Shown piece by piece: positions 14,562 through 37,621 of a DNA stretch of 37,621 nt. The DNA lies in NCBI GenBank assembly GCA_022574315.1, contig JACZSH010000001.1, forward strand, positions 1 through 37,621, read 5' to 3'. The notes under the pieces were generated by a model. It had not been told where the DNA came from and searched no databases. It worked only from the letters and a program-made list of their open reading frames with translations. Made by a program: the position numbers and the translations under genes. The stretch is from Chloroflexota bacterium. Lineage in GTDB: Bacteria > Chloroflexota > Dehalococcoidia > Dehalococcoidales > RBG-16-60-22. How positions within the stretch are numbered: position 1 is the first letter of the stretch; every line of letters starts with the position of its first letter.

Positions 14562-14615
14562 TATCCTTCATACATCATTATATCATCGCTTGATTAATCA
14601 GTGAGGAGAGAGAAT

Positions 14616-15758: not shown

Positions 15759-15768
15759 GGAGCGGGAT

Positions 15769-17405: not shown

Positions 17406-18144
17406 GTGTTACCGAAACCAGAACCGGAAGATGAAAGGATAACCCTGGCCAGCTTCATCCGTGAAGTTTTCGACGACTGGTTAACCAGGTCGGCCGGGAT
17501 TGTCTTTATCCTCATCGTAGCCCTGGTTATTTTCAATATTTTCTCGGACCTTCCGGAGATGTATCCATTCTTCGGGGTTTTTAATTTCTCAATGGTGCCG
17601 GTACTGTTCATCGTCGGCGGCATCATCTTTATTCTGGCTATCCTGAGGAGTTGAATGATTGCCCATGATAAGACGTCATAGAAGACACCGTGAAAAACTG
17701 CTTTTTCTCATGTTTGCCGGTGCCATCGGCGTCATGTTACTGGTCATCGGGGGTTACCAGCTCATCGAGTTTAGTGACTCCACCGCCTTTTACGGCACTC
17801 TCTGCTTACCCGGACTCTCCGCATTCACGGGTGCTCTGCTCTGAGTGTCATGTCGGCTCCGGGGTAGGTTACCTGGCCAGGTCTAAGCTAAATGGTATTC
17901 CGCAGGTTTTTGCCGTCACCACCCCCACCACCCGCTCCGTCCCCGGCTTCGGTTCCATCCCCGGCTCCGTCTCCCATGCCGGCCCTTGCCCCCTTGCCGG
18001 CAGCTACCCCGCTGGCAATACCCCATGAGCTGGAAGGGCGTGACGACCTGCCTGCTCTGTCATCAGAGCGGTAGCCAGGCGGTTCCCGATGACCGCACCG
18101 GACGGGGCAATGAAACCTGCGCTTCCTGCCATCAACCGGAATAG
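17406..18144 (+). pseudogene. Disrupted multihaem c-type cytochrome gene (NapC/NirT-related membrane-anchored N-terminus plus C-terminal dihaem module), split over five successive +1-shifted frames
   Basis: Fragments: 17406-17654 (two TM segments), 17659-17844 (RRHRRH, TM, STAF.GT), from ~17807 (CSECHVGSG..ARSKLNGIPQVFAV; CSECH at 17837-17851), from ~17925 (Pro/Ala/Ser linker, IPHELEGRDD), and 18025-18144 (CLLCH at 18049-18063, CASCH at 18118-18132). Each piece resumes in the next +1 frame. Confidence 0.55.
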
Positions 18145-18230
18145 CCGGGTGGTTCGGATGCCGTGTGTCCTGGCTTAATTAATAATTTAATGAGAATGGC
18201 ACCGCGGGGGTGGTTTGACGACCAATTATA

Positions 18231-18259
18231 TTGACACCGGGAATACCCTATGGTAGTAT
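18231..18259 (+). promoter_or_regulatory. Near-consensus sigma70 promoter with extended -10 (TTGACA-17-TGgTAGTAT)
   Basis: TTGACA at 18231-18236, 17-nt spacer ending in TGg, TAGTAT at 18254-18259, about 345 nt upstream of ccmE. Confidence 0.5.
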
Positions 18260-18603
18260 GCAGTATAGAAAAACGGGTTCCTCATCGTGGTATTTGTTCC
18301 GGAAGTTGGGCGGTGTGAAGATAGCGGATGAACTTTAATAAGCATTGGCAAGATATTCAAACCTTGTGAAAACGTGATTCACGCCACTGGCGGAATGGGC
18401 TTATGGTTAAGACTATCTCTGATTTGCCTTACACCCGCGCCGGCCGCCGTGTGAAATAGTCGGGTTGCTGGGAGGGTTGCTGCTCTAGTTGCGGCTCTTG
18501 CCAGCGCTCTGGGTAAATAACTGCTCGCGGAATTGGCAAACCAGGCTACAACATCCAGTAACCGTCGTCGATAGCGGACAATAACGCGATTCTGGAGTAA
18601 ATA

Positions 18604-19005
18604 ATGCTAAAGAAAAAGAAATTTGTTATTGGCGGCATTATCATCTTCCTGGCCATAGGCTATCTTGGATTCATGAGCTTCCAGAGTTCGGCAACGTATT
18701 ACTATACGCTCACCGAGTTCGCTCAGCAAGGAGATTCCGTCAACGGCGAAAACGTTCGTGTCAAAGGCGATATTGCCTCCGGCTCCGTTGAAAAAGAACA
18801 GGCGGGACGCATCTTGAGGTTCATCCTGGTGGAAGGAACGGAAAGCATGCCGGTTTACTACCAGGGAGTTGTTCCGGATACGTTCAATGAAGATTTTGAA
18901 ATCGTGATTGAAGGTAAACTCGGTGCGGACGGCGTTTTTGAAGCCCATACCATTATGTCCAAGTGCCCCTCCAAGTATGAGTTTGAGCCGGAAGATAATG
19001 GTTAA
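18604..19005 (+). CDS. ccmE: Cytochrome c maturation haem chaperone CcmE, Cys-type variant (CxxxY instead of HxxxY)
   Basis: N-terminal TM anchor and OB-fold pattern (VRVKGDI...FILVEG...VYYQGVVPDTF...IVIEG). The C-terminal SKCPSKYE sits where canonical CcmE has AKHDENY. Cys121 is encoded at 18964-18966. Confidence 0.85.
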   Translation: MLKKKKFVIGGIIIFLAIGYLGFMSFQSSATYYYTLTEFAQQGDSVNGENVRVKGDIASGSVEKEQAGRILRFILVEGTESMPVYYQGVVPDTFNEDFEIVIEGKLGADGVFEAHTIMSKCPSKYEFEPEDNG

Positions 19006-24511: not shown

Positions 24512-25171
24512 ATGCTCAGAAAATTGTTAGTATGGCTCGGTGTGACCCTGATGGTGTTTTCCTTGTTCCTCGTCTTCGTTTACGTTCCCACGGAGAGGAC
24601 CATGGGTATCGTGCAGAAAATCTTTTACCTCATGGTGCCGATGGGCTGGTTGGCAATACTCTCCTTCCTCATTATTTTCGTCGGCAGTATCTTCTACCTC
24701 GCTAAGAAGAGCCGCCGGTGGGACAACCTTGCTTTCTGCGGGGCTGAAACGGGGCTGGTCTTTACCACTCTGGCTTTGATTATAGGGTCTATCTGGGCAA
24801 AACCCATCTGGGGAGTCTGGTGGACCTGGGAACCTCGCTTAACCGCTACCCTGGTTCTCTGGTTGATTTACATCGCTTATTTTATGGTGCGCTCTTTTGC
24901 CTCGGAAGAATACCGGGGGGCAACCTTTGCCGCCGTCGTTGGCATTGTCGGCTTCGTTGACATCCCCATCATTATCCTGTCCACCACCCTCTGGCGGGGG
25001 ATGCATCCCGGGCCGATTATTTTTCAGGGCGGACTGGAACCTGCCATGCTCTTCACCTTGCTGGTCAGCCTGGCGGCCTTTACCGTTTTATATGTTCTTA
25101 TCCTTACCCAGCGTGTTTCACTGAGAAATGACCAGATGGAATTAGCCAGATTGAAGGAACTATACCATTAA
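24512..25171 (+). CDS. ccmC: Haem exporter / haem delivery protein CcmC (WWD family)
   Basis: AAGGAGG RBS. WAKPIWGVWWTWEPRLTA tryptophan-rich motif. Polytopic membrane protein. Confidence 0.85.
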   Translation: MLRKLLVWLGVTLMVFSLFLVFVYVPTERTMGIVQKIFYLMVPMGWLAILSFLIIFVGSIFYLAKKSRRWDNLAFCGAETGLVFTTLALIIGSIWAKPIWGVWWTWEPRLTATLVLWLIYIAYFMVRSFASEEYRGATFAAVVGIVGFVDIPIIILSTTLWRGMHPGPIIFQGGLEPAMLFTLLVSLAAFTVLYVLILTQRVSLRNDQMELARLKELYH

Positions 25172-25201
25172 CCGGTAATACTTGAAAGGAGAAGTATCGT
25201 T

Positions 25202-25351
25202 ATGGAAAATACGGGATTTTTACTTGCGGCTTTCAGTATCGTCTGGGCGGTCGTCTTCGGTTACATCCTTCTCATGGTTAACCGCCAGCGCAAACTCCGG
25301 ATAGAAATCGCCTCACTGAAAGCAACATTGAAGGAAAAAGGAATAGAATAG
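25202..25351 (+). CDS. ccmD: CcmD-like small membrane protein (49 aa, below the ORF-track cutoff)
   Basis: My own translation: MENTGFLLAAFSIVWAVVFGYILLMVNRQRKLRIEIASLKATLKEKGIE. Single TM helix plus basic tail directly after ccmC, as expected for CcmD. GGAGAAG RBS-like sequence upstream. Confidence 0.6.
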   Translation: MENTGFLLAAFSIVWAVVFGYILLMVNRQRKLRIEIASLKATLKEKGIE

Positions 25352-25367
25352 GCCCCGGGGGTTCCCC

Positions 25368-25955
25368 GTGACGGCTGGCGCCCTGGCTCTGGCCGGCCGC
25401 CATCATTTTATAGCGCCGCCGGCGGGTACGGAAAAGGTCAGGATGAGGATAAAAAAATCACAAGACCTTTCCATCAGTATCCTCGATGAGATAAACAAGC
25501 TGATTTATGAACTTCGCCCCTCACTCCTTGACGATTTGGGACTGGTGGCGGCGGCACGCTGGCTGGCGGGAAACAACCTGGAGACCGCCGGGATAAAAGT
25601 GGATTTTAAGACGGTCGGCAAGGAGAAGCGGTTACCATCTCAACTGGAAACAACCCTCTTCAGGGTCATCCAGGAAGCGGTGACCAATATCACCCGGCAT
25701 GCCGGCGCCAAAAACACCAGTATCAGCTTACAGTTCAAGCGGAGCCTGATCCGGGTCAGTATCAAGGATGACGGTAAAGGCTTTGACGTCGAGGAAGCGA
25801 TAACTTCTAGAGACCGCCCCCGGGGACTGGGCTTACTCGGTATGAAAGAGAGAGTTGAACTGGCGAAAGGTACTTTAAGCATACGTTCACGGGCCGGTTA
25901 CGGGACGCAGATCAGCATTGAAATTCCGTTAAAACAGGCAGTCGATAACTGGTGA
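25368..25955 (+). CDS. Truncated sensor histidine kinase (end of a HisKA_3 dimerisation helix plus HATPase_c); no sensor domain or H-box
   Basis: IYELRPSLLDDLGLVAAARWL, then the N-box RVIQEAVTNITRHA and G-boxes DDGKGFD and GLGLLGMKERV. There is no HD(x)xxQ phospho-acceptor helix and no room for one after ccmD. GTG-initiated ORF. Confidence 0.6.
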   Translation: MTAGALALAGRHHFIAPPAGTEKVRMRIKKSQDLSISILDEINKLIYELRPSLLDDLGLVAAARWLAGNNLETAGIKVDFKTVGKEKRLPSQLETTLFRVIQEAVTNITRHAGAKNTSISLQFKRSLIRVSIKDDGKGFDVEEAITSRDRPRGLGLLGMKERVELAKGTLSIRSRAGYGTQISIEIPLKQAVDNW

Positions 25956-26025
25956 AAATACCCCTATCTCCGGTGCCCCACCCGCCGGTCAGGTTAGCGC
26001 CATAGACGTCTACCCGGATTCTCTC

Positions 26026-27285
26026 TTATGCCCACGCCTCAGGAAAATACTGGATAGTCGCGTCTGGAATTACGGCCACCTTTGCCTTCTCTCCGTATTC
26101 GCTCCGGAGTTTATGAATCACCTCCGGCCACGCCTTTGCCCAGTTAATCATGTCGGGCGGCGCCAGCCAGTCGGCGCCCACCCGGTCGGCGTACTGGGCA
26201 AGCACCGTCAGACGCTTTGTGCCGGCGGGTAGTCCGGTAGGCACCCCCTCCGGACCTTTCGTTTTCCAGCCCCGGCCGCCAAACTTCTTACCGAAACTCC
26301 GCAGCAGGTAGTGGTGTATCTGGCCTTCCGGGGTAATGGCGATAACCACCATATCGCCGCCCGTCTTGGGCAGCATCGGCGAGGCTACCATCGGCGCCAG
26401 CAACATCTCGTTTGCCTTGGAGAAGCAGTTAGCGATGACGATGTCCGCATCACGCACCATGGCTGTCTCGTAATGCTTTCTGGCCAGTTTTACCCCCTCC
26501 GTGAATTCGGCCAGCGGGTCACCCACGAACAGGGCGGTTACTTGTCTCTTTAAGTTAAGGATGGCGTCCACCTTAATATCCAATCCGGCCAATTGGGCGG
26601 TCTCGATGATATCCTGCATCAGGTCGTTTTTGGCCAGTTCTCCGGCGTGTACATCGGGAGAGCGCCCCAGCCGGCCATGGTTAGCGTCTATCGTATCCAT
26701 GGCAGCGACCCCGGGCATGATTATCTTGCACCCGCCGCCAAAACCGAATGGGTGCGGGACGATGGCGCCGATGCCGATGGTAAGGTCGCAGGCCATGAAC
26801 TCGCTGTTAATGGCGACTGGTGTCCCGTAACTGGTCTTACCGATTGGTGTGCAGTTCTCGTACGGGTTGTGGTTGTAGACCATGAACCGGTCCATAACGT
26901 CCTCCCCCAGCTTCTTCCTGAAGTCAATACCGTTCATCGTCCCGTGCGCCCCGATGGCGGCAATGAAGCGTATGTTATCATCCGGAATGCCCGCCGACGC
27001 CAGTTCCTCCAGGATAAAGGGTATCAGGTCGGCGCTCGGTGTTGGTCGAGACATGTCATCAAAAAGTATGGCCACTTCTTGCTTCCCCTCGGCCATTTCC
27101 CTTATCGTCCGGGTGCCGATAGGGTTGGCGAAGGCTTGCCTGATACCAGCCTCGTTCAGTGGCGGCGCATCCTGTCCTTTCATCTTGCAGACGGTTACGT
27201 CCCACGATTCGGGAAAGTCCAGTTCAAGTTCTTCATCACCGTACCAGGCCAGTATTGGTATGGTTACCTTTTTCGTATGGCTCAC
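26026..27285 (-). CDS. LarA-family (DUF2088) nickel-pincer-nucleotide-dependent 2-hydroxyacid racemase/epimerase homologue
   Basis: GTG start with AGAGG RBS. AAIGAHG and VPHPFGFGGGCKIIMPGVAAMDTIDANHG reproduce the LarA catalytic His / GGxK tether / Ni-His arrangement as I recall it. Confidence 0.8.
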   Translation of the reverse strand: MSHTKKVTIPILAWYGDEELELDFPESWDVTVCKMKGQDAPPLNEAGIRQAFANPIGTRTIREMAEGKQEVAILFDDMSRPTPSADLIPFILEELASAGIPDDNIRFIAAIGAHGTMNGIDFRKKLGEDVMDRFMVYNHNPYENCTPIGKTSYGTPVAINSEFMACDLTIGIGAIVPHPFGFGGGCKIIMPGVAAMDTIDANHGRLGRSPDVHAGELAKNDLMQDIIETAQLAGLDIKVDAILNLKRQVTALFVGDPLAEFTEGVKLARKHYETAMVRDADIVIANCFSKANEMLLAPMVASPMLPKTGGDMVVIAITPEGQIHHYLLRSFGKKFGGRGWKTKGPEGVPTGLPAGTKRLTVLAQYADRVGADWLAPPDMINWAKAWPEVIHKLRSEYGEKAKVAVIPDATIQYFPEAWA

Positions 27286-27375
27286 TTTCTTACCTCTCTA
27301 ATCTGTAATTCACTCCGCTCACTCCGTATCCGGTGTTTTATTTTTGTCTTTCTCCGCCAGGTAGTCCGAAGCGCG

Positions 27376-28743
27376 CTATAAAAATTCTTTTTCAAAATCG
27401 CCCAGCGCGTCATCCAGCATATCGAAGGCGGCGTCAATCTCGCCTTCGGTGATGATAAAAGGCGGCGAGACCAGGAAAGTGTCTCCTCTCACCCCATTAT
27501 CCACCCCGGTGGTCGGGTAACCCATGCACCCCTTGTCCATCGCTATCCGCTGGAAGCGGTTGGCCGCTCTTAGTGTCGGGTCGAAAGGCTCCTTCGTCGC
27601 CTTATCCTTCACCAGTTCGATGCCCATGAGCAGTCCCTTGCCCCGGATATCTCCTACCACCGGGTGTCCGGACAGCTTCTCTCTGCCTTTTTTAAAGAAG
27701 TATTCTCCCAGCCGGGCGCTGCGTTCCACCAGCCCTTCCTTTTCGATGATGTCGATTACGGTCAGGCAGGCTGTCGCCGATACCGGGTTGCCCTCCATGG
27801 TGAAACCGTGGATAAAGCTGGCCCCTTTCTCGGTGAACACTTCCCCTATTTTCCGGTCGATAATCGCCACCGCCATCGGCGTGTAGCCGCCGGTCATTCC
27901 CTTGGCTGAGGTGATGATGTCCGGTTGTACTCCCCAGTGCTCGATGCCGAACCACTTGCCGGTACGGCCGAAACCGCAGATAATCTCGTCGTCGATGAAA
28001 AGGACGTCGTGTTTATCGCAGATTTCTCTTATCATCGGATAGTACTCCGGCACCGGGACCATGCAGGCGGTGCCCGCACCGCCGATAGATTCGGCGATAA
28101 AGGCGGAAACGTACTGGGCGCCGACCTGGTTGATAATCTCGTCCAGGGCGCGGGCGCAGCGGATTTCACAACCGGGATAGGTCGTATCGTAAGGGCAGCG
28201 GTAGCAAAGCGGCGAGCCTATCTTCGGCCACTGGTGCAGCAGAGGGTTGAACTTGAGGCGGCGTCCGGTGTGCCCGGACGCGGATAGCGCCCCCAGCGTC
28301 ATACCGTGGTAACTTTGCCATCGTGATATCACCATGTGTTTCTCCGGGTTCCCGTTCTCCACGTGGTACTGGCGGGCAACTTTTATGGCGGTCTCGTTGG
28401 CCTCTGAGCCGCTGTTACAAAACTGGCACATGGTCAGGTTGGATGGGGAAACCTCGATGATTCGCTCGGCCAGAGCCAGCAAAGGCTCATTCAGCCAGAA
28501 ACCGCGAAAGAAAAAAGAGACCTTCTTCATCTGTTCCATCATGGCGTCTCTTACTCTCGGGTCGCCGTGTCCGATGGAGACCACGTGCGGGCCGCCGCTG
28601 AAATCAAGATATCTTTTACCTTCCTGGTCGAAAAGATAGACTCCTTCGCCGTGGTCGCAAATCACCTGCGGCAGCAGCGGACCGTGCACCGTGCCGAAAA
28701 CGTTGCCGGCTTTCTGCTGGGCGGCTTCTAACCGGTCTGGCAT
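27376..28743 (-). CDS. Class-III (omega-) aminotransferase, paralogue A
   Basis: 455 aa. [37 protein letters not shown] (PLP Lys). Roughly 70% identical by eye to the 31175-32542 product. Confidence 0.9.
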
Positions 28744-28890
28744 CCTGTCTCCACCTCGCTGTTAATTATTTCCCGTTTACGCTGGAACCTGTGATACCAT
28801 AGACATAATGGCTGTTTTCTTAAGTCGGGTAAATGCCCGGCGGCTAATGCTGCCGGCAGGCACCGGTCTCAACGGTAGTCCTACCGCCGA

Positions 28891-28948
28891 TATTAAGATA
28901 ATGGCCGTAAGTTGTCAACTATTAAGATAATGGCCGTAAGTTGTCAAC
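28891..28948. repeat. Perfect 29-bp tandem direct repeat (TATTAAGATAATGGCCGTAAGTTGTCAAC x2) that carries minus-strand promoter elements
   Basis: Units at 28891-28919 and 28920-28948 are identical. On the minus strand each unit gives TTGACA, a 17-nt spacer, then TAATAG or TAATAT. Confidence 0.9.
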
Positions 28949-28991
28949 CTGACACCGGCGGTTTTAATATGTTTGTTGTTCTGATTTTCAA

Positions 28992-29020
28992 TTGACTGGC
29001 CGTTTGCCTTCTGATAACAT
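28992..29020 (+). promoter_or_regulatory. Candidate promoter for the corrinoid protein / MtmB-like operon (TTGACT-17-TAACAT)
   Basis: TTGACT at 28992-28997, 17-nt spacer, TAACAT at 29015-29020. AAGGAGG RBS at 29032-29038, ATG at 29044. Confidence 0.4.
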
Positions 29021-29043
29021 GTACAACGGATAAGGAGGGATAG

Positions 29044-29700
29044 ATGGCAGCAGAGAGTAAATATGAGCGATTAAGTGAAGCGATAATAGAGGGGGACGGC
29101 GGCAAGACGTTAGCTGCCATTGAGGAAGCGTTACAGGGAGGCATGGCGCCGGGGGAGGTTATCGAAAAAGGGCTGACCCCGGGGATGAAAGAAGTCGGGG
29201 AACGGTTTGCCCGCTATGAGATATACCTGCCGGAGATGATGATGGCCGGGGAGGCCTGGGAGCAGGCGATGAAGGTACTGGAGCCGAAGCTGCTGGCCGC
29301 CGGCGGGGAGAAAAAGAAAGCCGGCCGGGTGGTCATCGGCACGGTCAGTGGTGACGTGCACTCGATAGGCAAAAACATCGTGGCGGCGATGTTAAAGATG
29401 AACGGGTTTGAGGTATTTGACATTGGCATCGACGTGGCGTCGTCGGTATTTGTCACCCGGGCTGAGGAGGTAGGGGCGGACATTATTGCCGCCTCGGCGC
29501 TGATGAGCACCACCATGCCGCAGCAGCGAGACATTATCGAGCACCTGGAAGCCCGTGGAGTGCGTGACAAGTACACATTTCTGGTGGGCGGTGGTTCCAC
29601 CAGTCAGGAGTGGGCGGACAGCATCGGCGCTGATGGCTACGGGCGGACGGCGGGAGACGCGGCGGCATTGGCCTTGAAAGTGATGGCGGGTAAGAGTTAA
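29044..29700 (+). CDS. Cobalamin-binding corrinoid protein (MtmC/MtbC/MttC-like: B12-binding_2 cap plus Rossmann B12 domain)
   Basis: DxHxxG motif GDVHSIGKN (29353-29370) followed by FEVFDIGIDV ... SALMSTTM ... LVGGG. Size (218 aa) and helical N-terminal cap fit methyltransferase-cognate corrinoid proteins. Confidence 0.85.
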   Translation: MAAESKYERLSEAIIEGDGGKTLAAIEEALQGGMAPGEVIEKGLTPGMKEVGERFARYEIYLPEMMMAGEAWEQAMKVLEPKLLAAGGEKKKAGRVVIGTVSGDVHSIGKNIVAAMLKMNGFEVFDIGIDVASSVFVTRAEEVGADIIAASALMSTTMPQQRDIIEHLEARGVRDKYTFLVGGGSTSQEWADSIGADGYGRTAGDAAALALKVMAGKS

Positions 29701-29745
29701 AGGAGAGACTTAAAAGTGGTGGCGGGTACAAAGTTAAAGGAGAGA
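29680..29745 (+). repeat. Imperfect tandem duplication of the corrinoid-gene 3' end plus RBS (GTGRTGGCGGGTA..AGTTAAAGGAGAGA x2)
   Basis: 29680-29708 (GTGATGGCGGGTAAGAGTTAAAGGAGAGA) and 29716-29745 (GTGGTGGCGGGTACAAAGTTAAAGGAGAGA). The second copy supplies the RBS of the MtmB-like gene. Confidence 0.8.
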
Positions 29746-29752
29746 TATATAG

Positions 29753-31141
29753 ATGCTTAGTTTTGCGGCGGTAGTTGACCGCGCTTTAAGCGGGCCGATA
29801 TGCACGGAGCGGGATTTTGAGTTGGGGATTTTTGTGCCCAACCTGCGCCGGGTAGTTGAGAAATATGATATTAAGTATGACCCGCAGAATCCGGTACCGG
29901 CGGACGATGATTTAGCCGACCGGGTATGGGAGGCAGGGCTGGAGTTCCTCACCGAGACGGGTGTTTACTGCACGGATACGGAGCGGCGGATACTGTTCAC
30001 GAGGGAAGAGATAGAGGGGGCGTTAGCCTTCGGGCCCCGTGGCAACACCTTTGGTGAAGGTAAAGACGCCAAAGTAATGCCCCGTCGTCGTCCTGAAGAC
30101 GAGACTCCGCCCTGGTGCTCGGTGGGCCCCACTTCCTCCCCCCTCTCCAGCGAACAGATTTACCTCAGCATCGTCAAGGCTCACGCCGAGAACCCGCTGG
30201 GAAACTCCATTACCATTCCCTGCCTGACCATGGTGGACGGCCGGCAGATAGTGGCCGGCAGCCCCTTGGGCATAGAAGGCGCCATCCGGGCGGTGCTGCT
30301 GACTCGCGAGGCAATGCGCCGGGCCGGTCGACCCGGCATGCCCATCGTCAACGGCGTCACTACCGCCGCCAGGTCTCAGGAGCATATCGCCGCCCATCGC
30401 TTTGGCCTTCGCCAGTCTGATGCCATGGAGATAGGCACCACTCACGAGATGAAGATTGATTTCGATTCTTTGAACAAGATTGCCTTTTCGCTGGCCGCCG
30501 GCAGTCTCGTTTTTGCCGAGAACGGCGTTATCCTGGGTGGTCTCGCCGGCGGGCCGGCCGGTGTCGCCGTGGTCACCGCCGCTTACAATCCGGTGGATAT
30601 ATTAGTCCTGCGCGGCGCCGTCCAGCACCCCTTCCCCACCCACTTTGACCTTGGGGTAACTTCCACCCGGGACACCATCTGGCCGCGCAGCCTGGCCAAC
30701 CAGGCAATCACCCGTAACAGCTCCCTGCCGGTGGTCAACGTTGGCTACTCCGGGGCCGGCCCGATGACCAAGATGCTCTATTACGAGCACTCGGCATGGG
30801 TCATTGCCTCCGTCGTCTCCGGTGGCTCCATCGAGGTCGGCGCGTCGGCACGCGGCACGACCCTTGACTACACCAGTCCCATCGAACCACTCCTCGCTTC
30901 TGAGGTCGCCCATGCCGTGGCCGGGATGAGCCGTCCGGAAGCCAACAAGATAATCAATGTCCTCCTGGCTAAGTACGAGGACAACCTGCGCAACCCGCCT
31001 GCCGGCCAGCGTTACCAGGAATGCTTTGACGTGGCCAGCGGAACCCCCACCGCGGAATGCGCTGCGCTTTACCGCGAGGTCAAGCAGGAAATGGCGGATG
31101 AGTTCGGCCTGAAATTTAATCCTGTCTCGCCCTATGCGTAG
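29753..31141 (+). CDS. Monomethylamine methyltransferase MtmB-family homologue, pyrrolysine-free (copy 1)
   Basis: The 462-aa uninterrupted ORF is collinear with Methanosarcina MtmB as I recall it: GVYCTDTERRILFTREEI vs GIYCTDTHRIVKYTEDEI; AGRPGMPIVNG vs AGRPGMGV(Pyl)G; PAGQRYQECFDV vs PAGKTFQECYDV. No in-frame TAG. Confidence 0.8.
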   Translation: MLSFAAVVDRALSGPICTERDFELGIFVPNLRRVVEKYDIKYDPQNPVPADDDLADRVWEAGLEFLTETGVYCTDTERRILFTREEIEGALAFGPRGNTFGEGKDAKVMPRRRPEDETPPWCSVGPTSSPLSSEQIYLSIVKAHAENPLGNSITIPCLTMVDGRQIVAGSPLGIEGAIRAVLLTREAMRRAGRPGMPIVNGVTTAARSQEHIAAHRFGLRQSDAMEIGTTHEMKIDFDSLNKIAFSLAAGSLVFAENGVILGGLAGGPAGVAVVTAAYNPVDILVLRGAVQHPFPTHFDLGVTSTRDTIWPRSLANQAITRNSSLPVVNVGYSGAGPMTKMLYYEHSAWVIASVVSGGSIEVGASARGTTLDYTSPIEPLLASEVAHAVAGMSRPEANKIINVLLAKYEDNLRNPPAGQRYQECFDVASGTPTAECAALYREVKQEMADEFGLKFNPVSPYA

Positions 31142-31174
31142 TCAATAACTTATGCTGAAGGGATAATTTGAGCC

Positions 31175-32542
31175 ATGTCTGAGCGATTGGATGCCGCTAA
31201 AAAAGCGCGTACCAAAGTATTTGGTGTTTTATCCTCCCTGCCCGCCGAACGTATCTGCGACCACGGTGAAGGGGTTTACCTCTTTGACCAGGACGGCCGG
31301 CAGTACATTGATTTTTCCGGCAGTCCCATGGCCTGTTGTCTCGGGCATGGCGACCAGCGGATAACCCGCGCCGTCACCGAACAGATGCAGAAGGTAAGTC
31401 TCTGCTTCAACACCTACTGGATTAATGAACGTGAGGGAGAACTGGCCGAAAGAGTCCTCCGCCGTGCCCCGCGGAACATGGCGCGCTGCCAGTTTCTCAA
31501 CAGCGGCTCGGAAGCCACCGAATCGGCCATCAAGCTCGCCCGCCAGTACCACCTGGAAAACGGGCAGCCGGGAAAATACATGGTTATCTCCCGCTGGCAG
31601 AGTTATCACGGCATGACCCTGGGCGCGCTTTCCGTAACCGGATTTTCCAGCCGCCGGGATAAGTTTACTCCCCTCCTCCAATCCTGGCCCAAGATAGATG
31701 CGCCGCTTTGCTACCGCTGCCCCTACGATATGACCTATCCGGGCTGCGAAGTCCGCTGCGCCCGCGCCCTGGACGATATTATCAACCAGGTCGGCGCCCA
31801 GTACGTCTCCGCCTTTATCGCCGAACCAATCGGCGGCGCCGCCAGCGCCGCAATGGTGCCCGTGCCGGAGTATTATCCCCTGATAAGAGAAATCTGCGAT
31901 AAACACGACGTCCTGTTCATCGACGATGAGGTTATCTGCGGTTTCGGCCGCACCGGTAAATGGTTCGGCATCGACCACTGGGGGGTACAACCGGACATCA
32001 TCACCATGGCCAAAGGAATGACCGGCGCCTATACCCCCCTGGCTGCCATACTGGTTTCCGACCGTATCGTCGGCGTTTTTGAGCAGACCGGGGGCAAGTT
32101 CATCAATGCCTTTACCACCGCCGGAAATCCGGTTTCCTGCGCCGCCGGCATCGCCGTGGTCGATATTATAGAGAATGAAGGACTGGTCGAACGCAGTGCC
32201 CGGTTAGGTGAGTACCTGCACCGGCGTGCCCGGGAGAAGCTCTCTCATCACCCCGTGGTCGGTGATATTCGCGGCCGGGGTATGCTTATGGGAGTAGAGC
32301 TGGTCAGGGATAAGGCCACTAAGGAACCTTTTGACTCTTCCCTGCTGGCCGGTTCCCGCGTGCATCGTCTGGCTATGGAAAAAGGGTGTATGGTCTTCCC
32401 CACTTCCGGCTTTGTCCATGGCGTCCGGGGAGATGCCATCATGATGGCGCCGCCTTATATTATCACCGAGGCGCAGATTGACGCCGCTCTTGATATGGTA
32501 GACGAATCGCTGGCTGACTTCGCCCAAGAAATTGCCGGGTAA
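31175..32542 (+). CDS. Class-III (omega-) aminotransferase, paralogue B
   Basis: 455 aa. [37 protein letters not shown]. Starts 33 nt after the MtmB-like gene. Confidence 0.9.
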   Translation: MSERLDAAKKARTKVFGVLSSLPAERICDHGEGVYLFDQDGRQYIDFSGSPMACCLGHGDQRITRAVTEQMQKVSLCFNTYWINEREGELAERVLRRAPRNMARCQFLNSGSEATESAIKLARQYHLENGQPGKYMVISRWQSYHGMTLGALSVTGFSSRRDKFTPLLQSWPKIDAPLCYRCPYDMTYPGCEVRCARALDDIINQVGAQYVSAFIAEPIGGAASAAMVPVPEYYPLIREICDKHDVLFIDDEVICGFGRTGKWFGIDHWGVQPDIITMAKGMTGAYTPLAAILVSDRIVGVFEQTGGKFINAFTTAGNPVSCAAGIAVVDIIENEGLVERSARLGEYLHRRAREKLSHHPVVGDIRGRGMLMGVELVRDKATKEPFDSSLLAGSRVHRLAMEKGCMVFPTSGFVHGVRGDAIMMAPPYIITEAQIDAALDMVDESLADFAQEIAG

Positions 32543-32591
32543 GTCTGGTTTCCAAAAGGGGGTTATCTCCCCGGTTTTATCGCCGCTTCCG

Positions 32592-33071
32592 TTACGGAGT
32601 GGCTCCCATGTGATGGATTAATTCGATGGTATCCATCAGGCCGTCCCCTCCCTTGATGGTGTCCAGATTGACGAAGGTTTCCGTCCTCAGGATGCTGGGA
32701 ATAGCCGATATTTCCCGCTCGATAAACTGGGCCAGTTCCTCGGGCGATTTGGTAACCACGATAGCCATCAGGTCGTATCGGCCGGTGACAAAAGCCAGGT
32801 AGCAGATATGCTTATTCTTGGCCAGCTTTTCGGCAACTTGTCTCAGGTCCTCCATCTTGACCTGGATTCCCGCGATGCCGATAAAGCCATAACCCAGCTT
32901 TCGCATGTTTGGTACCGCCACTATCTTGATGAGGTTCTTACCCAGCAGGTTCTTTATCCTTTTCCGTATCGTGCCCTCAACGACTCCCATTTTCTTTGCC
33001 AGTTTAACGTAGCCCTCCCGGCCATTTTCCTGCAATTCAATAATTAATTTTCTGTCTAGGTCATCAATCAT
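32592..33071 (-). CDS. Lrp/AsnC-family transcriptional regulator
   Basis: DDLDRKLIIELQENGREGYVKLAKKMGVVEGTIRKRIKNL (HTH), then an RAM/ACT-like domain (VTGRYDLMAIV). Confidence 0.9.
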   Translation of the reverse strand: MIDDLDRKLIIELQENGREGYVKLAKKMGVVEGTIRKRIKNLLGKNLIKIVAVPNMRKLGYGFIGIAGIQVKMEDLRQVAEKLAKNKHICYLAFVTGRYDLMAIVVTKSPEELAQFIEREISAIPSILRTETFVNLDTIKGGDGLMDTIELIHHMGATP

Positions 33072-33357
33072 TATCTTCTCCCTGGTTCTTTCGAGTTTGG
33101 ATTATAGCAGGCACTCCCTTATAAGTCAAGAAAATATTACGCATAACGTAAAAATATTAGCTGGATTGTTAGGGAAACCGCTTTTTCGCCTGGCGATAAT
33201 TGTGCGGTATCTTGATTTGACAAAAATCCCCGTTTAATGTTAAGAAGTGGCATATACCAATTGCCTTATTTTCACGTTCAACCTGCCTGTGAACATTTAA
33301 AGCAAGGCCCTTACCGTGTAGAATATTCAGCATTGTGGTATGTATCGTATATAATAC

Positions 33358-33386
33358 TTGACAATAACCGATAAACGTAATACTAA
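33358..33386 (+). promoter_or_regulatory. Candidate promoter for the aminotransferase C / MtmB-like-2 unit (TTGACA-17-TACTAA)
   Basis: TTGACA at 33358-33363, 17-nt spacer, TACTAA at 33381-33386, in an AT-rich 480-bp divergent intergenic region. Confidence 0.35.
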
Positions 33387-33565
33387 TGCCAATATATGAC
33401 TTGATAAATGTAGGAAAACGTGATGAATAATATGGCGTGAAAATGTCATGGCCTGGCCGCGCTGCGGGCTGAGAAGGGCTGAACTCGCCTGTCGGCGAGT
33501 TCGGAAAAATGTAGCTCTGTTTTTGAATCCCGGCAGGCAGTAAATAAATACGGATGGAGAATCAA

Positions 33566-34936
33566 ATGAAATCTGACGATGTGGAAAAATTGGTCGCTAC
33601 GGCAAAAAAGTATTTGTGGCCGGCATTTGCCCGGGACGCCTCCTTCTTCGGCCGTCCGGTATCTATCATTAAGTCCGCTGAGGGACGTTATTTTCTGGAC
33701 AGCTTTGGCAACCGGTTGCTTGAACCTAACTCGTCCGGTGGCGCGGCTCCCCTCGGCTATAACCTCCCCGAGCTTATGCAGGCCGTCTCCGAGCAAATGA
33801 GCCTGATTATCAACACCACCCCCAGCCTCTTTGCCCCCACCGAGCCCATCGTCTGGCTCGCCGAGAAGATTGCCCATATTTCGCCGGGTAATCTGACATA
33901 CACCATCTTTGGCAGCAATGGCACGGACGCTAACGAGGCGGCGGTGAAAATAGCCCGCCATTACTGGAAAATAATGGGCAAAGCTACCAAGTACAAGGTG
34001 CTTCACCGCTACCCGGGAGACTATCACGGCTTCAGTCTCGGCATGTCCAGTGCCAGCGGTCATTCTTTCCGGCGGACGGCCTTTGAACCGCTCATGGCCG
34101 GTTTTGTCGCTTTTCACGCCCCTAACTGTTATCGCTGTCCGTATAACCTGACCCATCCGGAGTGTGACCTGCTCTGTGCGGAAGAGTTCCGCAAAGTGGT
34201 TGAGTTTGAAGACCCGTCCACCATTGCCGCCCTCATCAGTGAAAACACCAATACCGGTCTGGGGATGGTGCTGCCGCCCCCCGGCTACATGCAGAGAATG
34301 CGCGAGATTTGTGACCGGTATGAAATCCTCATGATTCTGGATGAGATAATTACCGGTTTTGGCAAGACCGGCGTCTGGTTTGAATGTGAAAAGTATGATA
34401 TCGTCCCGGACATGATTGCCATGGGAAAAGGCATCGTCTGGGGCTGCGGCCCTCTGGCGGGGACGCTGGTCAGGGGTGACATTACCGAGGTATTTACCGG
34501 CGCCAATGCCTTGCAGCACGGTTTTACTTTTGGCGGCCTGGGTTACCTGGCCGCCGCCGGTCTCGCCGGTATCAAATACGTCGAAGAACATAATCTGCTG
34601 GCCCGGGCGTCTCAGATAGGTGACATAATGTCACGGGAGCTCGGTGCCATTAAGGACCGCTCAAAGATTATCGGTGACGTCCGTGTCAACGGCGTCCTCG
34701 CTGGCGTCGAGTTTGTCCGCGACAAGAGCACTAAAGAGCTTTTCGTCGACCGTGCCGCCGTGTCCAACCTCATCGTCAAGGTGGGCATGGAAAACGGTGT
34801 CCTGCTGCCCTGTTCCACCTGGTATGGAGATATCCTGATGTTGATGGTGCCGATGACCATGACCGATGACGAGTTGGGTATGCTCTTTAACGCCATCGAA
34901 AAGGCGACTGCCGAAGTAGAACGTCAGTTCCTTTAG
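33566..34936 (+). CDS. Class-III (omega-) aminotransferase, divergent paralogue C
   Basis: GSNGTDANE, ILDEIITGFGKTGVWFE, IAMGKGI (PLP Lys). ATG at 33566 has GGAG 6 nt upstream; ATG at 33554 is the alternative start. Confidence 0.85.
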   Translation: MKSDDVEKLVATAKKYLWPAFARDASFFGRPVSIIKSAEGRYFLDSFGNRLLEPNSSGGAAPLGYNLPELMQAVSEQMSLIINTTPSLFAPTEPIVWLAEKIAHISPGNLTYTIFGSNGTDANEAAVKIARHYWKIMGKATKYKVLHRYPGDYHGFSLGMSSASGHSFRRTAFEPLMAGFVAFHAPNCYRCPYNLTHPECDLLCAEEFRKVVEFEDPSTIAALISENTNTGLGMVLPPPGYMQRMREICDRYEILMILDEIITGFGKTGVWFECEKYDIVPDMIAMGKGIVWGCGPLAGTLVRGDITEVFTGANALQHGFTFGGLGYLAAAGLAGIKYVEEHNLLARASQIGDIMSRELGAIKDRSKIIGDVRVNGVLAGVEFVRDKSTKELFVDRAAVSNLIVKVGMENGVLLPCSTWYGDILMLMVPMTMTDDELGMLFNAIEKATAEVERQFL

Positions 34937-34946
34937 GCAGCACTGT

Positions 34947-34978
34947 CCTTGAAAGTGATGGCGGGTAAAAGTTAAAGG
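34947..34978 (+). repeat. Orphan remnant of the corrinoid-protein gene 3' end (CCTTGAAAGTGATGGCGGGTAAAAGTTAAAGG)
   Basis: Matches 29672-29703 (the last codons ...LKVMAGKS-stop of the corrinoid gene plus RBS start) with a single mismatch, but here it follows an aminotransferase gene. Confidence 0.8.
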
Positions 34979-34998
34979 GTTCGAGGAGAGATATAAAA

Positions 34999-36384
34999 AT
35001 GCTTAGTTTTGCGGCGGTAGTTGACCGCGCCTTAAGCGGGCCGATATGCACCGAGCGCGATTTTGAGTTGGGGATTTTTGTGCCCAACCTGCGCCGGGTA
35101 GTTGAGAAATACGGGATAAAGTATGACCCCCAGAATCCGGTCTCCGCTGATGATGACCTGGCCGACCGGGTATGGGAGGCAGGACTGGAGTTCCTCGCCG
35201 AGACGGGTGTTTACTGCACGGATACCGAGCGGCGGATTACGTTTACCCGGGAAGAAATCGACGGCGCCCTGGCGACGGCGCCTCGCCCGGTTCTTTTCGG
35301 CGATGGGAAAGATGTTAGAGCCGTACCCATCCGCCGCCCTGAAGACAAGACCCCGCCTTGGTGTTCTGGTTCCGGTGCCGGCCCGGTATCCACGGAACAG
35401 ATTCTTTTCAACGTGGTAAAACTGTATGCCCAGGACCCCCTCAGCGATGGTATTACCGCCCCCGCCATGTCCTACGTCGGTGGACGGGACATTATTGCCG
35501 GTAGCCCCCGCGGCCTGGAAGGCGCCATCCGCACCATTCTTTTAACCCGTGAGGCGCTGCGCCGTGCCGGACGTCCCGGCATGCCCGTCGTCAACGAGGT
35601 CGCCACTGCGGTGCGGGCGCAGGAGCATATCGCCGGACACCGCTTCGGCAGCGTGAAGACCGATTACCTGGAAATAGGCACCACCCACGAGTTGAAAGTT
35701 GATTTTGACGCGCTGAACCGGGTGGCCTACTGGCTGGCCGCCGGGAGCTACGGCTTTGCCGAAAACGGCGTTATCCTGGGTGGTCTTTCCGGTGGGCCCG
35801 CCGGTGTGGCGGTGGTTATCGCCGCCTATAATCCGTTGGACATGCTCGTCCTGCGCGGTGCGGTGCAGCACCCCTTTGCCGTTCCTTTTGAGGGAGGCAC
35901 CACCTCCAACCGTGGTTGCATGTGGGCACGGAATTTGGCCACGCAGGCAATAACCCGCCACAGTCCTATGCCGCTGGTTAACTCCGGTTATTCTGCTGCC
36001 GGGGCAATGACCCGGATGGCCTATTATGAATTTGCCGCCTGGGTTATCGGCTGCGTCGTCTCCGGGGCTTCCGTTGAGCTGGGCCCGCCGTTACGGGGCA
36101 CCGCCCTCGACCACAGTGCCCCCCTGGAGGATATTTTCGGAAACGCGGTCGCCCACGCCGCGGTGGGCCTGAGCCGCCGGGAAGCCAACAAGATACTCCA
36201 GGCGCTCCTGGAAGAATATGAAGCCAAGCTGGCTGACCCTCCGCTGGGCAAGAGATATCAGGAATGCTACGACCTGGCTACCGGTGAGCCGACTAAAGAA
36301 GCCGTTGACCTCTGCCGGGATGTCAGGCGGGAGATGTCTGACCGGTTCGGTCTGAAGTTCCCCCGTGTCTCGCCGTACCTGTAG
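34999..36384 (+). CDS. Monomethylamine methyltransferase MtmB-family homologue, pyrrolysine-free (copy 2)
   Basis: 461-aa uninterrupted ORF with the same family landmarks (GVYCTDTERRITFTREEI, AGRPGMPVVNE, PLGKRYQECYDL). About two thirds identical to copy 1 by eye. Confidence 0.8.
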   Translation: MLSFAAVVDRALSGPICTERDFELGIFVPNLRRVVEKYGIKYDPQNPVSADDDLADRVWEAGLEFLAETGVYCTDTERRITFTREEIDGALATAPRPVLFGDGKDVRAVPIRRPEDKTPPWCSGSGAGPVSTEQILFNVVKLYAQDPLSDGITAPAMSYVGGRDIIAGSPRGLEGAIRTILLTREALRRAGRPGMPVVNEVATAVRAQEHIAGHRFGSVKTDYLEIGTTHELKVDFDALNRVAYWLAAGSYGFAENGVILGGLSGGPAGVAVVIAAYNPLDMLVLRGAVQHPFAVPFEGGTTSNRGCMWARNLATQAITRHSPMPLVNSGYSAAGAMTRMAYYEFAAWVIGCVVSGASVELGPPLRGTALDHSAPLEDIFGNAVAHAAVGLSRREANKILQALLEEYEAKLADPPLGKRYQECYDLATGEPTKEAVDLCRDVRREMSDRFGLKFPRVSPYL

Positions 36385-36564
36385 GCTTGGTAACAGGGCG
36401 CTTACCGTTGTAATTCTCGCGCCCCGGTCCCATCCGCGGATTTACCGGCCAGGTCTGAACATCTAACTGGCAATGAGGTCTGCCCTGCCTTTTGTGATAG
36501 AATATCTTCATCATCAGGGAAAATCAGCAATCCATGGCTGTTCAACAGGGAGAATAAAACATCA

Positions 36565-37621
36565 ATGCACCCCTCGGATAAAAACAGACTGTTTTACGGT
36601 TGGGTGATTGTTATCGCCTTTTTCGTAATATGTTTTGTTCTCTACGGCGTCCAGTTTTCCTTCGGGGTCTTCTTCAAGTCAATCGAAAGCGAGTTCCAGC
36701 TCTCCCGGGCGGCTACCTCGTCAATTGTGTCTGTTAATATGGTATTGGTCGGCATCAGCGCTTTTATTGCCGGTTGGGCACTGGACAGGTTCGGGCCCCG
36801 CATCGTCCTCTTTATAATGGGCCTCTTCACCGGCCTCAGCCTTATCCTTACCGGCCAGACCGGTTCCCTGTGGCAGCTTTATTTCACCTATAGCCTCTTG
36901 CTGGCCATGGGTACCGGGGCTGTCTTCGTCGTCTCGGTGTCGACGGTCGCCCGCTGGTTTGACCGCCGGCGCGGCCTGGCGATGGGTATTACCGGTTCTG
37001 GCATTGGCTTTGGCCCTTTGATTATCGCCCCACTGGCTACCTACCTCGTGGCCGCCCTCGATTGGCGGCTGGCTTATGTCATTCTCGGCATCGGTGCCTG
37101 GGTGCTTGTCCTTCCTTTCTCCTTTTTCCTGAAAGGCGACCCGTCTCAGGTTGGCGCTTTGCCTGATGGCGCCCGGGAGCCGGCATTGGATACCGGACAA
37201 AATCACGCCCGGGCGGGCTATCTCTCTTTGCTGCAGGCCGTCCGGGTGCGTAGTTTCTGGCTTTGTCAGGGTATCTGGGTGTTTCATGCCGCTAACATCT
37301 TTCTCATCATGACCCACCTGGTGCCCCATGTTACCGATATCGGCTTCTCGGCGATGGAGGCCGCCATCGTGCTCAGCGTGATTGGGGTTGCCTCAACCTT
37401 CGGCCGGGTAATCATGGGCGTTGTTAGTGACCGGGTGGGCGGAAAATTGACCATTATCCTTTGCGGTCTTTTTCAGAGCAGTGCCACCATCTCGCTCATC
37501 TGGGTGCAGGACCTGCCGGCGTTTTATCTTTTTGCCGTCGCCTGGGGAATTGCTTTCGGCGGTATGGCTCCCGCCATGGGGACTCTCGCCAGTAGCACCT
37601 TTGTCCTGGGGCGTATCGGCT
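36565..37621 (+). CDS. MFS transporter (oxalate/formate-antiporter-like subfamily), 3' end beyond the window
   Basis: My own translation from the ATG at 36565 stays open to the window end. It shows repeated TM segments and MFS motifs (GWALDRFGPRIV; ARWFDRRRGLAMGI; VVSDRVGGK). It is not in the ORF track because no stop is reached. Confidence 0.8.
   Translation, partial: MHPSDKNRLFYGWVIVIAFFVICFVLYGVQFSFGVFFKSIESEFQLSRAATSSIVSVNMVLVGISAFIAGWALDRFGPRIVLFIMGLFTGLSLILTGQTGSLWQLYFTYSLLLAMGTGAVFVVSVSTVARWFDRRRGLAMGITGSGIGFGPLIIAPLATYLVAALDWRLAYVILGIGAWVLVLPFSFFLKGDPSQVGALPDGAREPALDTGQNHARAGYLSLLQAVRVRSFWLCQGIWVFHAANIFLIMTHLVPHVTDIGFSAMEAAIVLSVIGVASTFGRVIMGVVSDRVGGKLTIILCGLFQSSATISLIWVQDLPAFYLFAVAWGIAFGGMAPAMGTLASSTFVLGRIG

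Follow-up and report, generated by a model that had tools for sequence, protein, structure and literature searches.

Positions 26026-37621 of a stretch of DNA from a subsurface Chloroflexota bacterium (Dehalococcoidia, Dehalococcoidales; contig JACZSH010000001.1 of assembly GCA_022574315.1, of which positions 1 to 37,621 were analysed, hereafter the window) carry a corrinoid protein gene (corr), two genes for pyrrolysine (Pyl)-free homologues of the methyltransferase MtmB, three class-III aminotransferase genes, and genes for a LarA homologue, an AsnC/Lrp-family regulator and a major facilitator superfamily (MFS) transporter. We propose, from the gene content of this block and its conservation in relatives, that it would encode a Pyl-independent N-demethylation module feeding ω-transamination, and would supply the substrate-specific half of a corrinoid methyl-transfer system with three components. 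The probability of this reading is, in our estimation, roughly 50%. The link between the aminotransferases and the corr-mtmB genes is real and frequent but facultative. The cassette is a good lead to the function of the non-Pyl MtmB proteins, and the new anaerobic route for N-methylated amines that it may represent is testable but unproven.

Pyrrolysine-free MtmB homologues and their corrinoid partner

The two MtmB homologues, MtmB-like 1 and MtmB-like 2, are 68% identical in amino acid sequence and match the MtmB profile PF05369 with 309.7 and 266.2 bits, respectively (cut-off, 25), spanning positions 6-447 of its 450. Residues 8-453 of MtmB-like 1 could be aligned with MtmB of Methanosarcina barkeri (PDB 1NTH/1L2Q; E = 3e-63). 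An AlphaFold (AF2) model of MtmB-like 1 (pTM 0.83) gave TM scores of 0.90/0.91 to 1NTH over 457 columns at 31% identity, and the next-nearest folds, the MttB/MtgB structures, gave about 0.53 at 11-14% identity. In the Pfam scan, none of the window proteins matched the MttB family (PF06253). The earlier note on this DNA had assigned both open reading frames (ORFs) to the MtmB family, and the full-length profile matches and the predicted fold bear this out. No functionally characterised orthogroup containing either protein was identified, and no exact database match for MtmB-like 1 is on record.

Neither mtmB gene contains an in-frame stop codon. Pyl202 of M. barkeri MtmB aligns with Asn200 of MtmB-like 1 and Asn199 of MtmB-like 2. 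Asn occupies this column in all of the 168 close-clade sequences (clade A, defined by an MtmB identity of at least 60%), which come without exception from Dehalococcoidia, and V, N, G and other residues are found there in distant homologues. The surrounding motif is GRPGMP(I/V)VN, of which GRPGM, before the Pyl site, is shared with M. barkeri MtmB. The proteins differ from the monomethylamine enzymes in the Pyl-column residue as well as in the pocket. Public annotations of the relatives read monomethylamine:corrinoid methyltransferase. Since UAG/pyrrolysine is replaced by Asn, and since neither a pyl operon nor MtbA or RamA lies nearby, monomethylamine would be a very unlikely substrate of MtmB-like 1 and 2.

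The closest relatives of MtmB-like 1 (64-96% identity) come from metagenome-assembled genomes (MAGs) of Dehalococcoidia/Chloroflexota and from marine, subsurface and sediment metagenomes. MtmB-like 2 has an orthologue (91% identity) at 17332-18723 of locus L001. The whole MtmB superfamily amounted to 1,080 clusters at 50% identity (E ≤ 1e-3, among 1.84 billion cluster representatives).

The corrinoid protein scored 222.7 bits against TIGR02370, above the cut-off of 215.3, and its DxHxxG sequence, the base-off/His-on motif, reads DVHSIG (residues 104-109, nt 29353-29370). It is most like the amine- and betaine-type partners (TIGR02370, MtgC, MtbC). A corrinoid gene stands directly 5' of an MtmB homologue in most of the loci examined, a near-universal adjacency. 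Both mtmB ORFs encode true MtmB-family proteins, complete in length and free of pyrrolysine, and each has historically had a corrinoid protein as its partner.

Aminotransferases beside corr and mtmB in relatives

The aminotransferases, ATa, ATb and ATc, match PF00202 over the full-length domain with 319.7, 306.4 and 236.5 bits, respectively, and all three contain the Lys residue that binds pyridoxal 5'-phosphate in the motif D[IM]I[TA][SM][AG]KG (DIITSAKG in ATa). The identity between ATa and ATb is 67%, and ATc shares about 33% with either of them. None of the three reached an NCBIfam equivalog cut-off. They resemble ω-transaminases for γ-aminobutyrate (GABA), putrescine, taurine and β-alanine, and are not specifically closest to BauA-type enzymes. 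Assignment of their substrates from PDB and NCBIfam neighbours was dropped, the similarity being only that of generic ω-transaminases.

A census of gene neighbourhoods was made on 101 loci with MtmB-like 1 as the bait. The ORFs were labelled against the window proteins and Pfam-annotated references, and statistics were taken on non-redundant loci flanked by 3 kb or more of sequence. A class-III aminotransferase gene was found within 3 kb of the array at 13 of the 33 clade-A loci and at none of the 25 distant-homologue loci (Fisher p = 2.4e-4). The pairing that the earlier note had drawn from this one block is thus found again in several Dehalococcoidia lineages that are independent of each other, and not around distant homologues, but it is not obligatory. 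Of the other genes whose co-occurrence the earlier note had asked about, LarA is present at 9 of the 33 clade-A loci, but the MFS gene is kept only in L001, a tripartite ATP-independent periplasmic (TRAP) transporter (DctPQM) taking its place in other lineages.

Orthologues of ATa (79-87% identity) adjoin corr/mtmB blocks in L024, L029, L039, L049, L050 and L070. ATb is a lineage-specific paralogue of ATa, co-oriented with mtmB1, and the mtmB-ATb adjacency is restricted to the lineage of the window (L001, L025, L035, L074). ATc orthologues of 72-89% identity lie directly 5' of corr-mtmB in L001, L024, L025, L029-L032, L039, L044, L047, L070 and L089, and a 79% orthologue stands within a block of type A, as described below. 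The cluster representatives 100% identical to ATc and ATa occur only on contigs of about 2 kb.

The contexts of the clade-A arrays fall into several types. In type A, ATa on the opposite strand is followed by an aminotransferase, LarA, sometimes a LeuB-like gene, and then ATc, corr and mtmB, sometimes with epimerase, PrpD and SDR genes in addition (L024, L029, L039, L047, L070, L089, L102; the window lineage, L001, L025, L035 and L074, is a variant). In type A2, ATc, corr and two to four mtmB genes precede a TRAP transporter, a class-IV aminotransferase and a 2-hydroxyacid dehydrogenase (L030-32, L044, L009). A related arrangement reads LarA, ATa on the opposite strand, mtmB, corr, mtmB, mtmB and a TRAP transporter (L049, L050). 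In type B, corr and mtmB are followed by PTE, MR_MLE and DHDPS genes on the opposite strand and then by hydrolase, Iso_dh and SBP5 genes (the L026 group, L006, L010, L036, L046 and others). In type C, enolase-like and MOFRL genes precede corr and mtmB (L033, L038, L042, L065).

The order ATc-corr-mtmB was found in at least four arrangement types with unrelated outer flanks. The outer flanks of the type-A blocks consist of unrelated housekeeping genes (Trp synthesis, Ccm/histidine kinase, RecG/FakA). It follows that the block travels as a unit. A subclade of MtmB specific to aminotransferase contexts was considered and rejected, as the neighbour-joining tree mixes the MtmB1 orthologues that stand first after corr from all context types.

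Around distant MtmB homologues of 31-37% identity (L017-L019, L023, L085, L088, L093; Anaerolineales and others), the corr-mtmB pairs are found with GntR/UTRA regulators, two amidohydrolases, a xanthine-dehydrogenase-type molybdoenzyme and an M20 peptidase. This separate context suggests that N-methylated heterocycles or ureides may be demethylated there.

Contraction of the corr/mtmB array

ORF calling with Pfam and NCBIfam scans recovered every gene of the earlier list with the same coordinates, and the spacings given there, 33 nt from mtmB1 to ATb and 62 nt from ATc to mtmB2, are exact. The corrinoid gene ends 52 nt before mtmB1. The ATc/MtmB-like 2 pair, however, has to be read differently from the other: a 32-nt remnant of a corrinoid gene lies between the two genes. 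The 3' end of corr with its ribosome-binding site (RBS) junction is present in two copies before mtmB1 (29672-29740) and in one more copy before mtmB2 (34947-34978). In addition, nucleotides 1-300 of mtmB2 are 84% identical to mtmB1, and the rest of the gene is 68% identical. These features indicate recombination or contraction inside a tandem corr/mtmB array.

The comparison with relatives points in the same direction. L001, a 95%-identical relative, has two corr and four mtmB genes, of which the second corr gene and two of the mtmB paralogues are missing from the window. In both L001 and L025, ATc is followed by corr; L001 goes on into mtmB genes, and L025 stops at the contig edge after corr. 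The complete order ATc-corr-mtmB is seen in L024 and L029, which belong to other clade-A lineages. The corr remnant, the mosaic 5' end of mtmB2 and the comparison with L001 together argue that the ATc-mtmB2 adjacency arose by array contraction, through either recombination or assembly collapse. As far as these comparisons go, the adjacency is secondary and the ancestral order is ATc-corr-mtmB.

Second methyltransferase and activase

In the 37.6-kb window, no second methyltransferase of a corrinoid system (MT2), no RamA/RACo activase and no pyl genes were found. The earlier observation that an MT2 and a RamA-type activase are missing from the window was correct. The possibility that MT2, RamA or pyl genes are encoded at 1-26000 was ruled out, the genes there being for haem, sulfur, Ccm and kinase functions. 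An MtaA/MtbA-like gene is absent from all clade-A loci as well and stands only beside the distant L015 and L076. Among all loci probed, MT2 or RACo occurs in cis only at some distant-homologue loci: an MtaA-like or methyl-tetrahydrofolate (methyl-THF) methyltransferase gene lies directly 3' of mtmB in L015, L076 and L075, and RACo is found in L018 and L023. These cis arrangements imply that the family works as the first methyltransferase (MT1) of three-component systems, clade A keeping MT2 and activase elsewhere.

A related MAG, GCA_011192105.1, offers a view of such an arrangement. Its corr-mtmB1 pair is on contig 5 (L026, type B) and its ATc orthologue is on contig 6 (L105). On contig 3 (L109, DUEM01000003.1, 194-11616), a 78% ATa orthologue is part of a tight co-oriented run of eight genes, which encode an iron-type alcohol dehydrogenase (Fe-ADH), a methylmalonate-semialdehyde dehydrogenase (MMSDH), a 144-aa hypothetical protein, ATa, an ADP-ribosyl-glycohydrolase, a URO-D-like protein, a methyl-THF:corrinoid methyltransferase and RACo. 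An MtaA/CmuA-family MT2 gene is located just 5' of the run. The NCBIfam scores exceed the cut-offs for MMSDH (537.5 bits; cut-off, 448.5), the methyl-THF:corrinoid methyltransferase (339.5; 259) and the MtaA-family protein (273.6; 235.4), and the activase is AcsV/RamA-like. The L109 operon contains no corrinoid protein and no recognisable MT1. Its URO-D-like protein (399 aa) is divergent and could be an unrecognised MT1.

In another MAG (L108), an 84% ATa orthologue stands beside MMSDH, a small hypothetical protein of the same 144-aa type, a corrinoid protein and a TRAP transporter. MMSDH matches TIGR01722 above the cut-off at both L109 and L108. Adjacencies of two independent kinds thus link the ATa orthogroup with corrinoid methyl transfer, and it is mainly for this reason that we favour metabolic coupling over coincidence.

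Proposed pathway

As family and fold suggest, MtmB-like 1 and 2 would act as MT1 and transfer the N-methyl group of an amine other than monomethylamine to Co(I) of the adjacent corrinoid protein. The tandem paralogues, two here and up to five in relatives, probably serve successive methylation states or related substrates. In the second step, modelled on the related MAG, methyl-Co(III) would pass its methyl group to tetrahydrofolate through a methyl-THF:corrinoid methyltransferase, or to another acceptor through an MtaA-type MT2. A RACo/RamA-type activase would keep the corrinoid active, with MT2 and activase presumably encoded elsewhere in the genome. In the third step, for which the conserved neighbourhood argues, the ω-type enzymes ATa, ATb and ATc would deaminate the primary amine to an aldehyde or oxo-acid, and in relatives a coenzyme A (CoA)-acylating (methyl)malonate-semialdehyde dehydrogenase would oxidise the product. 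The fourth step is speculative: LarA might interconvert stereoisomers of a 2-hydroxyacid downstream, the MFS protein might move a carboxylate substrate or product, and the AsnC regulator might sense an amino-acid-like effector.

The predicted substrates are most likely small carboxylated N-methyl amines, for example N-methylated β-alanine, 3-aminoisobutyrate or GABA-type osmolytes, because the aminotransferase-MMSDH pair, the carboxylate-type transporters and the similarity to ω-transaminases all point to such compounds. A single demethylation of a secondary amine, as had been proposed before, is not supported; the tandem arrays of two to five paralogues suggest stepwise removal of several methyl groups. 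On chemical grounds, and by the only biochemical precedent, quaternary or charged amines would be the easier substrates without pyrrolysine, and the step from secondary to primary amine would be the least precedented. In its fullest form, the pathway would comprise complete Pyl-independent N-demethylation of a methylated ω- or β-amino-acid osmolyte (for instance, the β-alanine-betaine series) to the primary amine, conversion by ω-transaminase and MMSDH to an acyl-CoA, and delivery of the methyl groups to the folate/Wood-Ljungdahl pool. We offer this full scheme tentatively and consider it rather unlikely as a whole. If it were true, it would be the first function for the largest bacterial clade of non-Pyl MtmB proteins, and tertiary and secondary amines would for the first time be seen to undergo corrinoid-dependent demethylation without pyrrolysine.

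Relation to known systems

It had been stated earlier that no Pyl-free MtmB-family enzyme was characterised. This is outdated: tetramethylammonium and choline, both quaternary amines, are demethylated by MtqB of Methanococcoides methylutens Q3c, an MtmB homologue without pyrrolysine that also has trace activity with monomethylamine (Kashyap et al. 2026; PMC13044021). The MtqB clade is marked by conserved Met/Cys residues and an aromatic pocket. MtqB is the sole such protein with a function; about 1,000 other non-Pyl MtmBs are without a known one. The mtm-like genes of Dehalococcoidia appear in the literature only in MAG inventories, with function unassigned, and no description of an MtmB/aminotransferase pathway was found there.

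MtqB/MtqC resembles the system of the window, when compared by its published description, in that a Pyl-free MtmB-family protein with an adjacent cognate corrinoid protein serves, or in the window would serve, as MT1 of a three-component system; MtqB shows that the MtmB fold is capable of amine demethylation without pyrrolysine. It differs in being archaeal and methanogenic, in feeding coenzyme M through MtqA/MtbA and in taking one methyl group off a quaternary amine. The window, in contrast, has a Dehalococcoidia host, tandem paralogues, the invariant Asn and no MT2 in cis, and ω-aminotransferases, LarA and AsnC are nearby. This neighbourhood implies that the carbon skeleton is also consumed. 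MtmB/MtmC of M. barkeri shares with the window the fold, the length, the GRPGM sequence and an adjacent corrinoid partner, and differs in its pyrrolysine (UAG codon), which is Asn here, and in the pyl operon, MtbA and RamA, which are not found nearby here.

The non-Pyl members of the MttB superfamily (MtgB, MtcB, MtpB, MtyB and the Eubacterium limosum choline/phosphocholine enzyme) are quaternary-amine demethylases. The logic of these systems is the same, in that a Pyl-free relative, a corrinoid protein, a methyl-THF MT2 and an activase harvest the methyl groups of osmolyte amines in anaerobic bacteria. They belong, however, to another protein family and remove a single methyl group to leave a tertiary amine, whereas the aminotransferase context of the window implies demethylation down to the primary amine. 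A non-Pyl MttB-family gene (PF06253, 6.8e-90) was also seen on the minus strand at 7905-9446 of L004, a few kb from a type-A corr-mtmB block, a hint that demethylases of the two types, MttB and MtmB, may have one compound series in common.

In the catabolism of β-alanine and 3-aminoisobutyrate, an ω-amino acid:pyruvate transaminase is paired with a CoA-acylating methylmalonate-semialdehyde dehydrogenase, as in bauA/bauC of Pseudomonas. The ATa orthologue and the TIGR01722 MMSDH of L109 and L108 form the same enzyme pair. The window itself differs from it, having no MMSDH, and its aminotransferases are not specifically BauA-like. The pairing of these two enzymes with corrinoid methyl-transfer genes is previously undescribed, and so is the recurrent association of corr-mtmB with ω-aminotransferases, LarA and AsnC in Dehalococcoidia.

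That MtmB has homologues without pyrrolysine was recognised years ago, and the Dehalococcoidia clade of the window is widespread in marine and subsurface metagenomes. With its gene contexts, the search for a substrate can be confined to small carboxylated N-methyl amines and likely partner enzymes can be named, so that the function of Pyl-free MtmBs becomes testable. If the coupling to transamination were true, it would represent a new anaerobic sink for methylated osmolytes and a new methyl source for sediment Chloroflexota of acetogenic or fermentative metabolism; it would also carry amine demethylation past the quaternary step without the 22nd amino acid.

Alternative explanations

Several observations weigh against the proposed coupling. 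No class-III aminotransferase gene lies within 3 kb at 20 of the 33 clade-A loci, and MtmB1 orthologues of about 80% identity stand beside PTE/MR_MLE/DHDPS/SBP5 or enolase/MOFRL/Ldh_2 genes, again without one. Orthologues of ATc at 76% and 69% identity are far from any corr/mtmB gene, being unlinked in L104/L105 and L106; the former is surrounded by another class-III aminotransferase, MR_MLE, SDR and aldehyde:ferredoxin oxidoreductase genes, and the latter adjoins a SerA-like gene. Neither MT2 nor activase was found in the 53 non-redundant clade-A loci, and the operon of aminotransferase, MT2 and RACo is known from one MAG only. LarA and MFS match named families only under the curated cut-offs. 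Demethylation of a secondary to a primary amine without pyrrolysine is unprecedented beyond the trace monomethylamine activity of MtqB.

There is another possible interpretation of these results, namely co-location without metabolic coupling: corr-mtmB might be a self-contained methyl-harvesting module that enters, or is shuffled among, amino-, hydroxy- and oxo-acid catabolic islands of Dehalococcoidia, with the aminotransferases, LarA, AsnC and MFS serving a separate amine or amino-acid pathway that does not use the products of MtmB. The aminotransferase-free loci and the unlinked ATc orthologues agree with this idea, as do the single MtmB1 orthogroup of about 80% identity that covers all context types in the neighbour-joining tree and the widely varying gene content around the cassette. 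The aminotransferase-free contexts could mean either that the substrate of the cassette is independent of its neighbours or that the neighbours are shuffled parts of one larger network. The strong enrichment of class-III aminotransferases near clade-A arrays and their absence near distant homologues are, however, not expected from mere shuffling, nor is the ATc-corr junction kept across lineages with unrelated outer flanks. The ATa orthologue in an operon with MT2 and RACo, though not adjoining mtmB, would be hard to explain without a functional tie. We see mere co-location as a serious but doubtful alternative, with something like one chance in four, and retain metabolic coupling as the preferred reading.

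An improbable alternative is that the methyl donor is not an amine but a methoxy, methylthio or halomethane-type compound, the aminotransferases being irrelevant to methyl transfer. The differing Pyl-column residue and pocket would be compatible with such a donor. Moreover, in 'Ca. Formimonas warabiya' a non-Pyl MtmB-superfamily protein is the most strongly induced protein on dichloromethane (PMC9768040). On the other hand, the only enzymatically characterised non-Pyl MtmB acts on quaternary amines, the corrinoid protein is nearest to amine- and betaine-type partners, and the neighbourhood consists mostly of amine and amino-acid enzymes.

The system could also run in the biosynthetic direction, the aminotransferases converting a carbonyl compound to a primary amine, the MtmB proteins N-methylating it stepwise from methyl-corrinoid and the MFS protein exporting the resulting osmolyte. 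The chemistry of MT1 is reversible, tandem paralogues could match successive methylations, and an exporter-like MFS gene does lie at the end of the block. The partners are, however, catabolic or serve uptake (CoA-acylating MMSDH, aldehyde:ferredoxin oxidoreductase, TRAP and ATP-binding cassette (ABC) binding proteins), and we know of no corrinoid-dependent N-methylating biosynthesis of this type; the idea is thus highly improbable. Least credible of all, to the point of near dismissal, is that these are true monomethylamine methyltransferases working without pyrrolysine, as family, fold, public annotation and the trace activity of MtqB might suggest, since the activation of methylamine is regarded as requiring pyrrolysine, in place of which these proteins have an invariant Asn, the window holds no Pyl machinery, and arrays of two to five paralogues make little sense for a one-carbon amine.

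Layout of the block and accessory genes

The features of the block are listed in Table 1.

Table 1. Features of the corrinoid/MtmB/aminotransferase block in the window.
Feature	Position (nt)	Strand	Best match or remark
LarA-family (nickel-pincer-nucleotide) 2-hydroxyacid racemase/epimerase homologue	26026-27285	-	PF09861 Lar_N, 1.5e-54, 184.8 bits
Class-III (ω-type) aminotransferase ATa, divergent from corrinoid gene	27376-28743	-	PF00202, 3.1e-95
Perfect 2 x 29-nt tandem repeat in ATa/corrinoid divergent promoter region	28891-28948		
Predicted cognate corrinoid protein (MtmC/MtgC-like)	29044-29700	+	PF02310 (B12-binding), PF02607 (B12-binding_2), TIGR02370
MtmB-like 1, Pyl-free MtmB-family methyltransferase, putative MT1	29753-31141	+	PF05369, 4.3e-92
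Class-III aminotransferase ATb	31175-32542	+	PF00202, 3.2e-91
AsnC/Lrp-family regulator	32592-33071	-	PF01037 + PF13404
Class-III aminotransferase ATc	33554-34936	+	PF00202, 5.8e-70
Corrinoid-gene 3'-end remnant with RBS junction, between ATc and mtmB2	34947-34978	+	97% identity over 32 nt to 29672-29703
MtmB-like 2, second Pyl-free MtmB paralogue, recombinant 5' end	34999-36384	+	PF05369, 6.9e-79
MFS transporter (OFA/SfMCT-like, monocarboxylate type), cut by window end	36565-37621	+	

The best NCBIfam match of the LarA homologue was the LarAH6 malate racemase, covering residues 15-321 only and with 231.8 bits far below the cut-off of 500. Its best PDB match was the malate racemase Mar2 (6d6z; 1.6e-42). 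His114, His178, Lys187 and His203 align with conserved positions of Mar2/LarA (two catalytic His, the cofactor-binding Lys and a Ni-ligand His). The protein was not assignable to a characterised LarAH subfamily of malate or lactate racemases. LarA orthologues of 51-65% identity are present in L024, L029, L039, L050 and L070. A route from carnitine or norcarnitine through 4-amino-3-hydroxybutyrate to D-malate, and then to a LarA malate racemase or D-malate dehydrogenase, was dropped as a specific claim, because the Iso_dh of L029, the best-preserved type-A block, is a bona fide LeuB (449 bits; cut-off, 353) and LarA is far under every LarAH cut-off.

AsnC orthologues (66-91% identity) stand beside corr/mtmB blocks in L001, L025, L030 and L072. 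The MFS protein, which is partial, scored 198.7 bits against the SfMCT L-lactate transporter of NCBIfam, below the cut-off, and also matched the OFA model TIGR00890. The sequence of L001 stops inside the same MFS gene.

In the divergent promoter region, the repeat unit TATTAAGATAATGGCCGTAAGTTGTCAAC (29 nt) forms a perfect tandem, with a degenerate third copy at 28796-28815, and overlaps sigma-70-like -35 hexamers. The duplication is private to the window, L035 having a single copy and L001 a variant; it is therefore recent, being absent from the closest relatives. A conserved operator 5' of corr was rejected as an explanation, since the repeat is private and no common motif was found in 32 distinct clade-A upstream regions. 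A search of 25000-37621 against Rfam gave no credible riboswitch or other RNA element. A terminator-like hairpin (32558-32572) lies 3' of the ATb stop codon, and this fits, together with the gene spacing, a predicted corr-mtmB1-ATb operon.

Other genes of the window

Immediately before the block, the histidine-kinase ORF (25368-25955, plus strand) has only the C-terminal HisKA_3/HATPase part (195 aa). At this site L001 and L025 have a 773-aa dCache/HAMP/GAF kinase, so that the window is short by about 1.8 kb. The shortened kinase reflects either a true deletion, which would make it a pseudogene, or an artefact of the assembly. At 17400-18150, just 5' of the ccm genes, short overlapping ORFs in different frames contain CxxCH haem-binding motifs and a transmembrane segment, and may represent a multihaem cytochrome c gene that is frameshifted or was wrongly assembled.

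Apart from this kinase, the region 1-26000 is occupied by genes for haem/sirohaem (Ahb) biosynthesis, sulfur assimilation and cytochrome c maturation. An alternative sirohaem-dependent haem cluster at 100-8386 encodes a fused AhbA/B-like decarboxylase, two radical-SAM proteins, HemA, HemC and HemD/CobA. A sulfur-assimilation and Cys/Met block at 9226-16992 encodes ThiF-like, sulfite-reductase-like, PAPS-reductase and TusA-fused PALP enzymes. Both appear to be unrelated to the corrinoid/MtmB finding.

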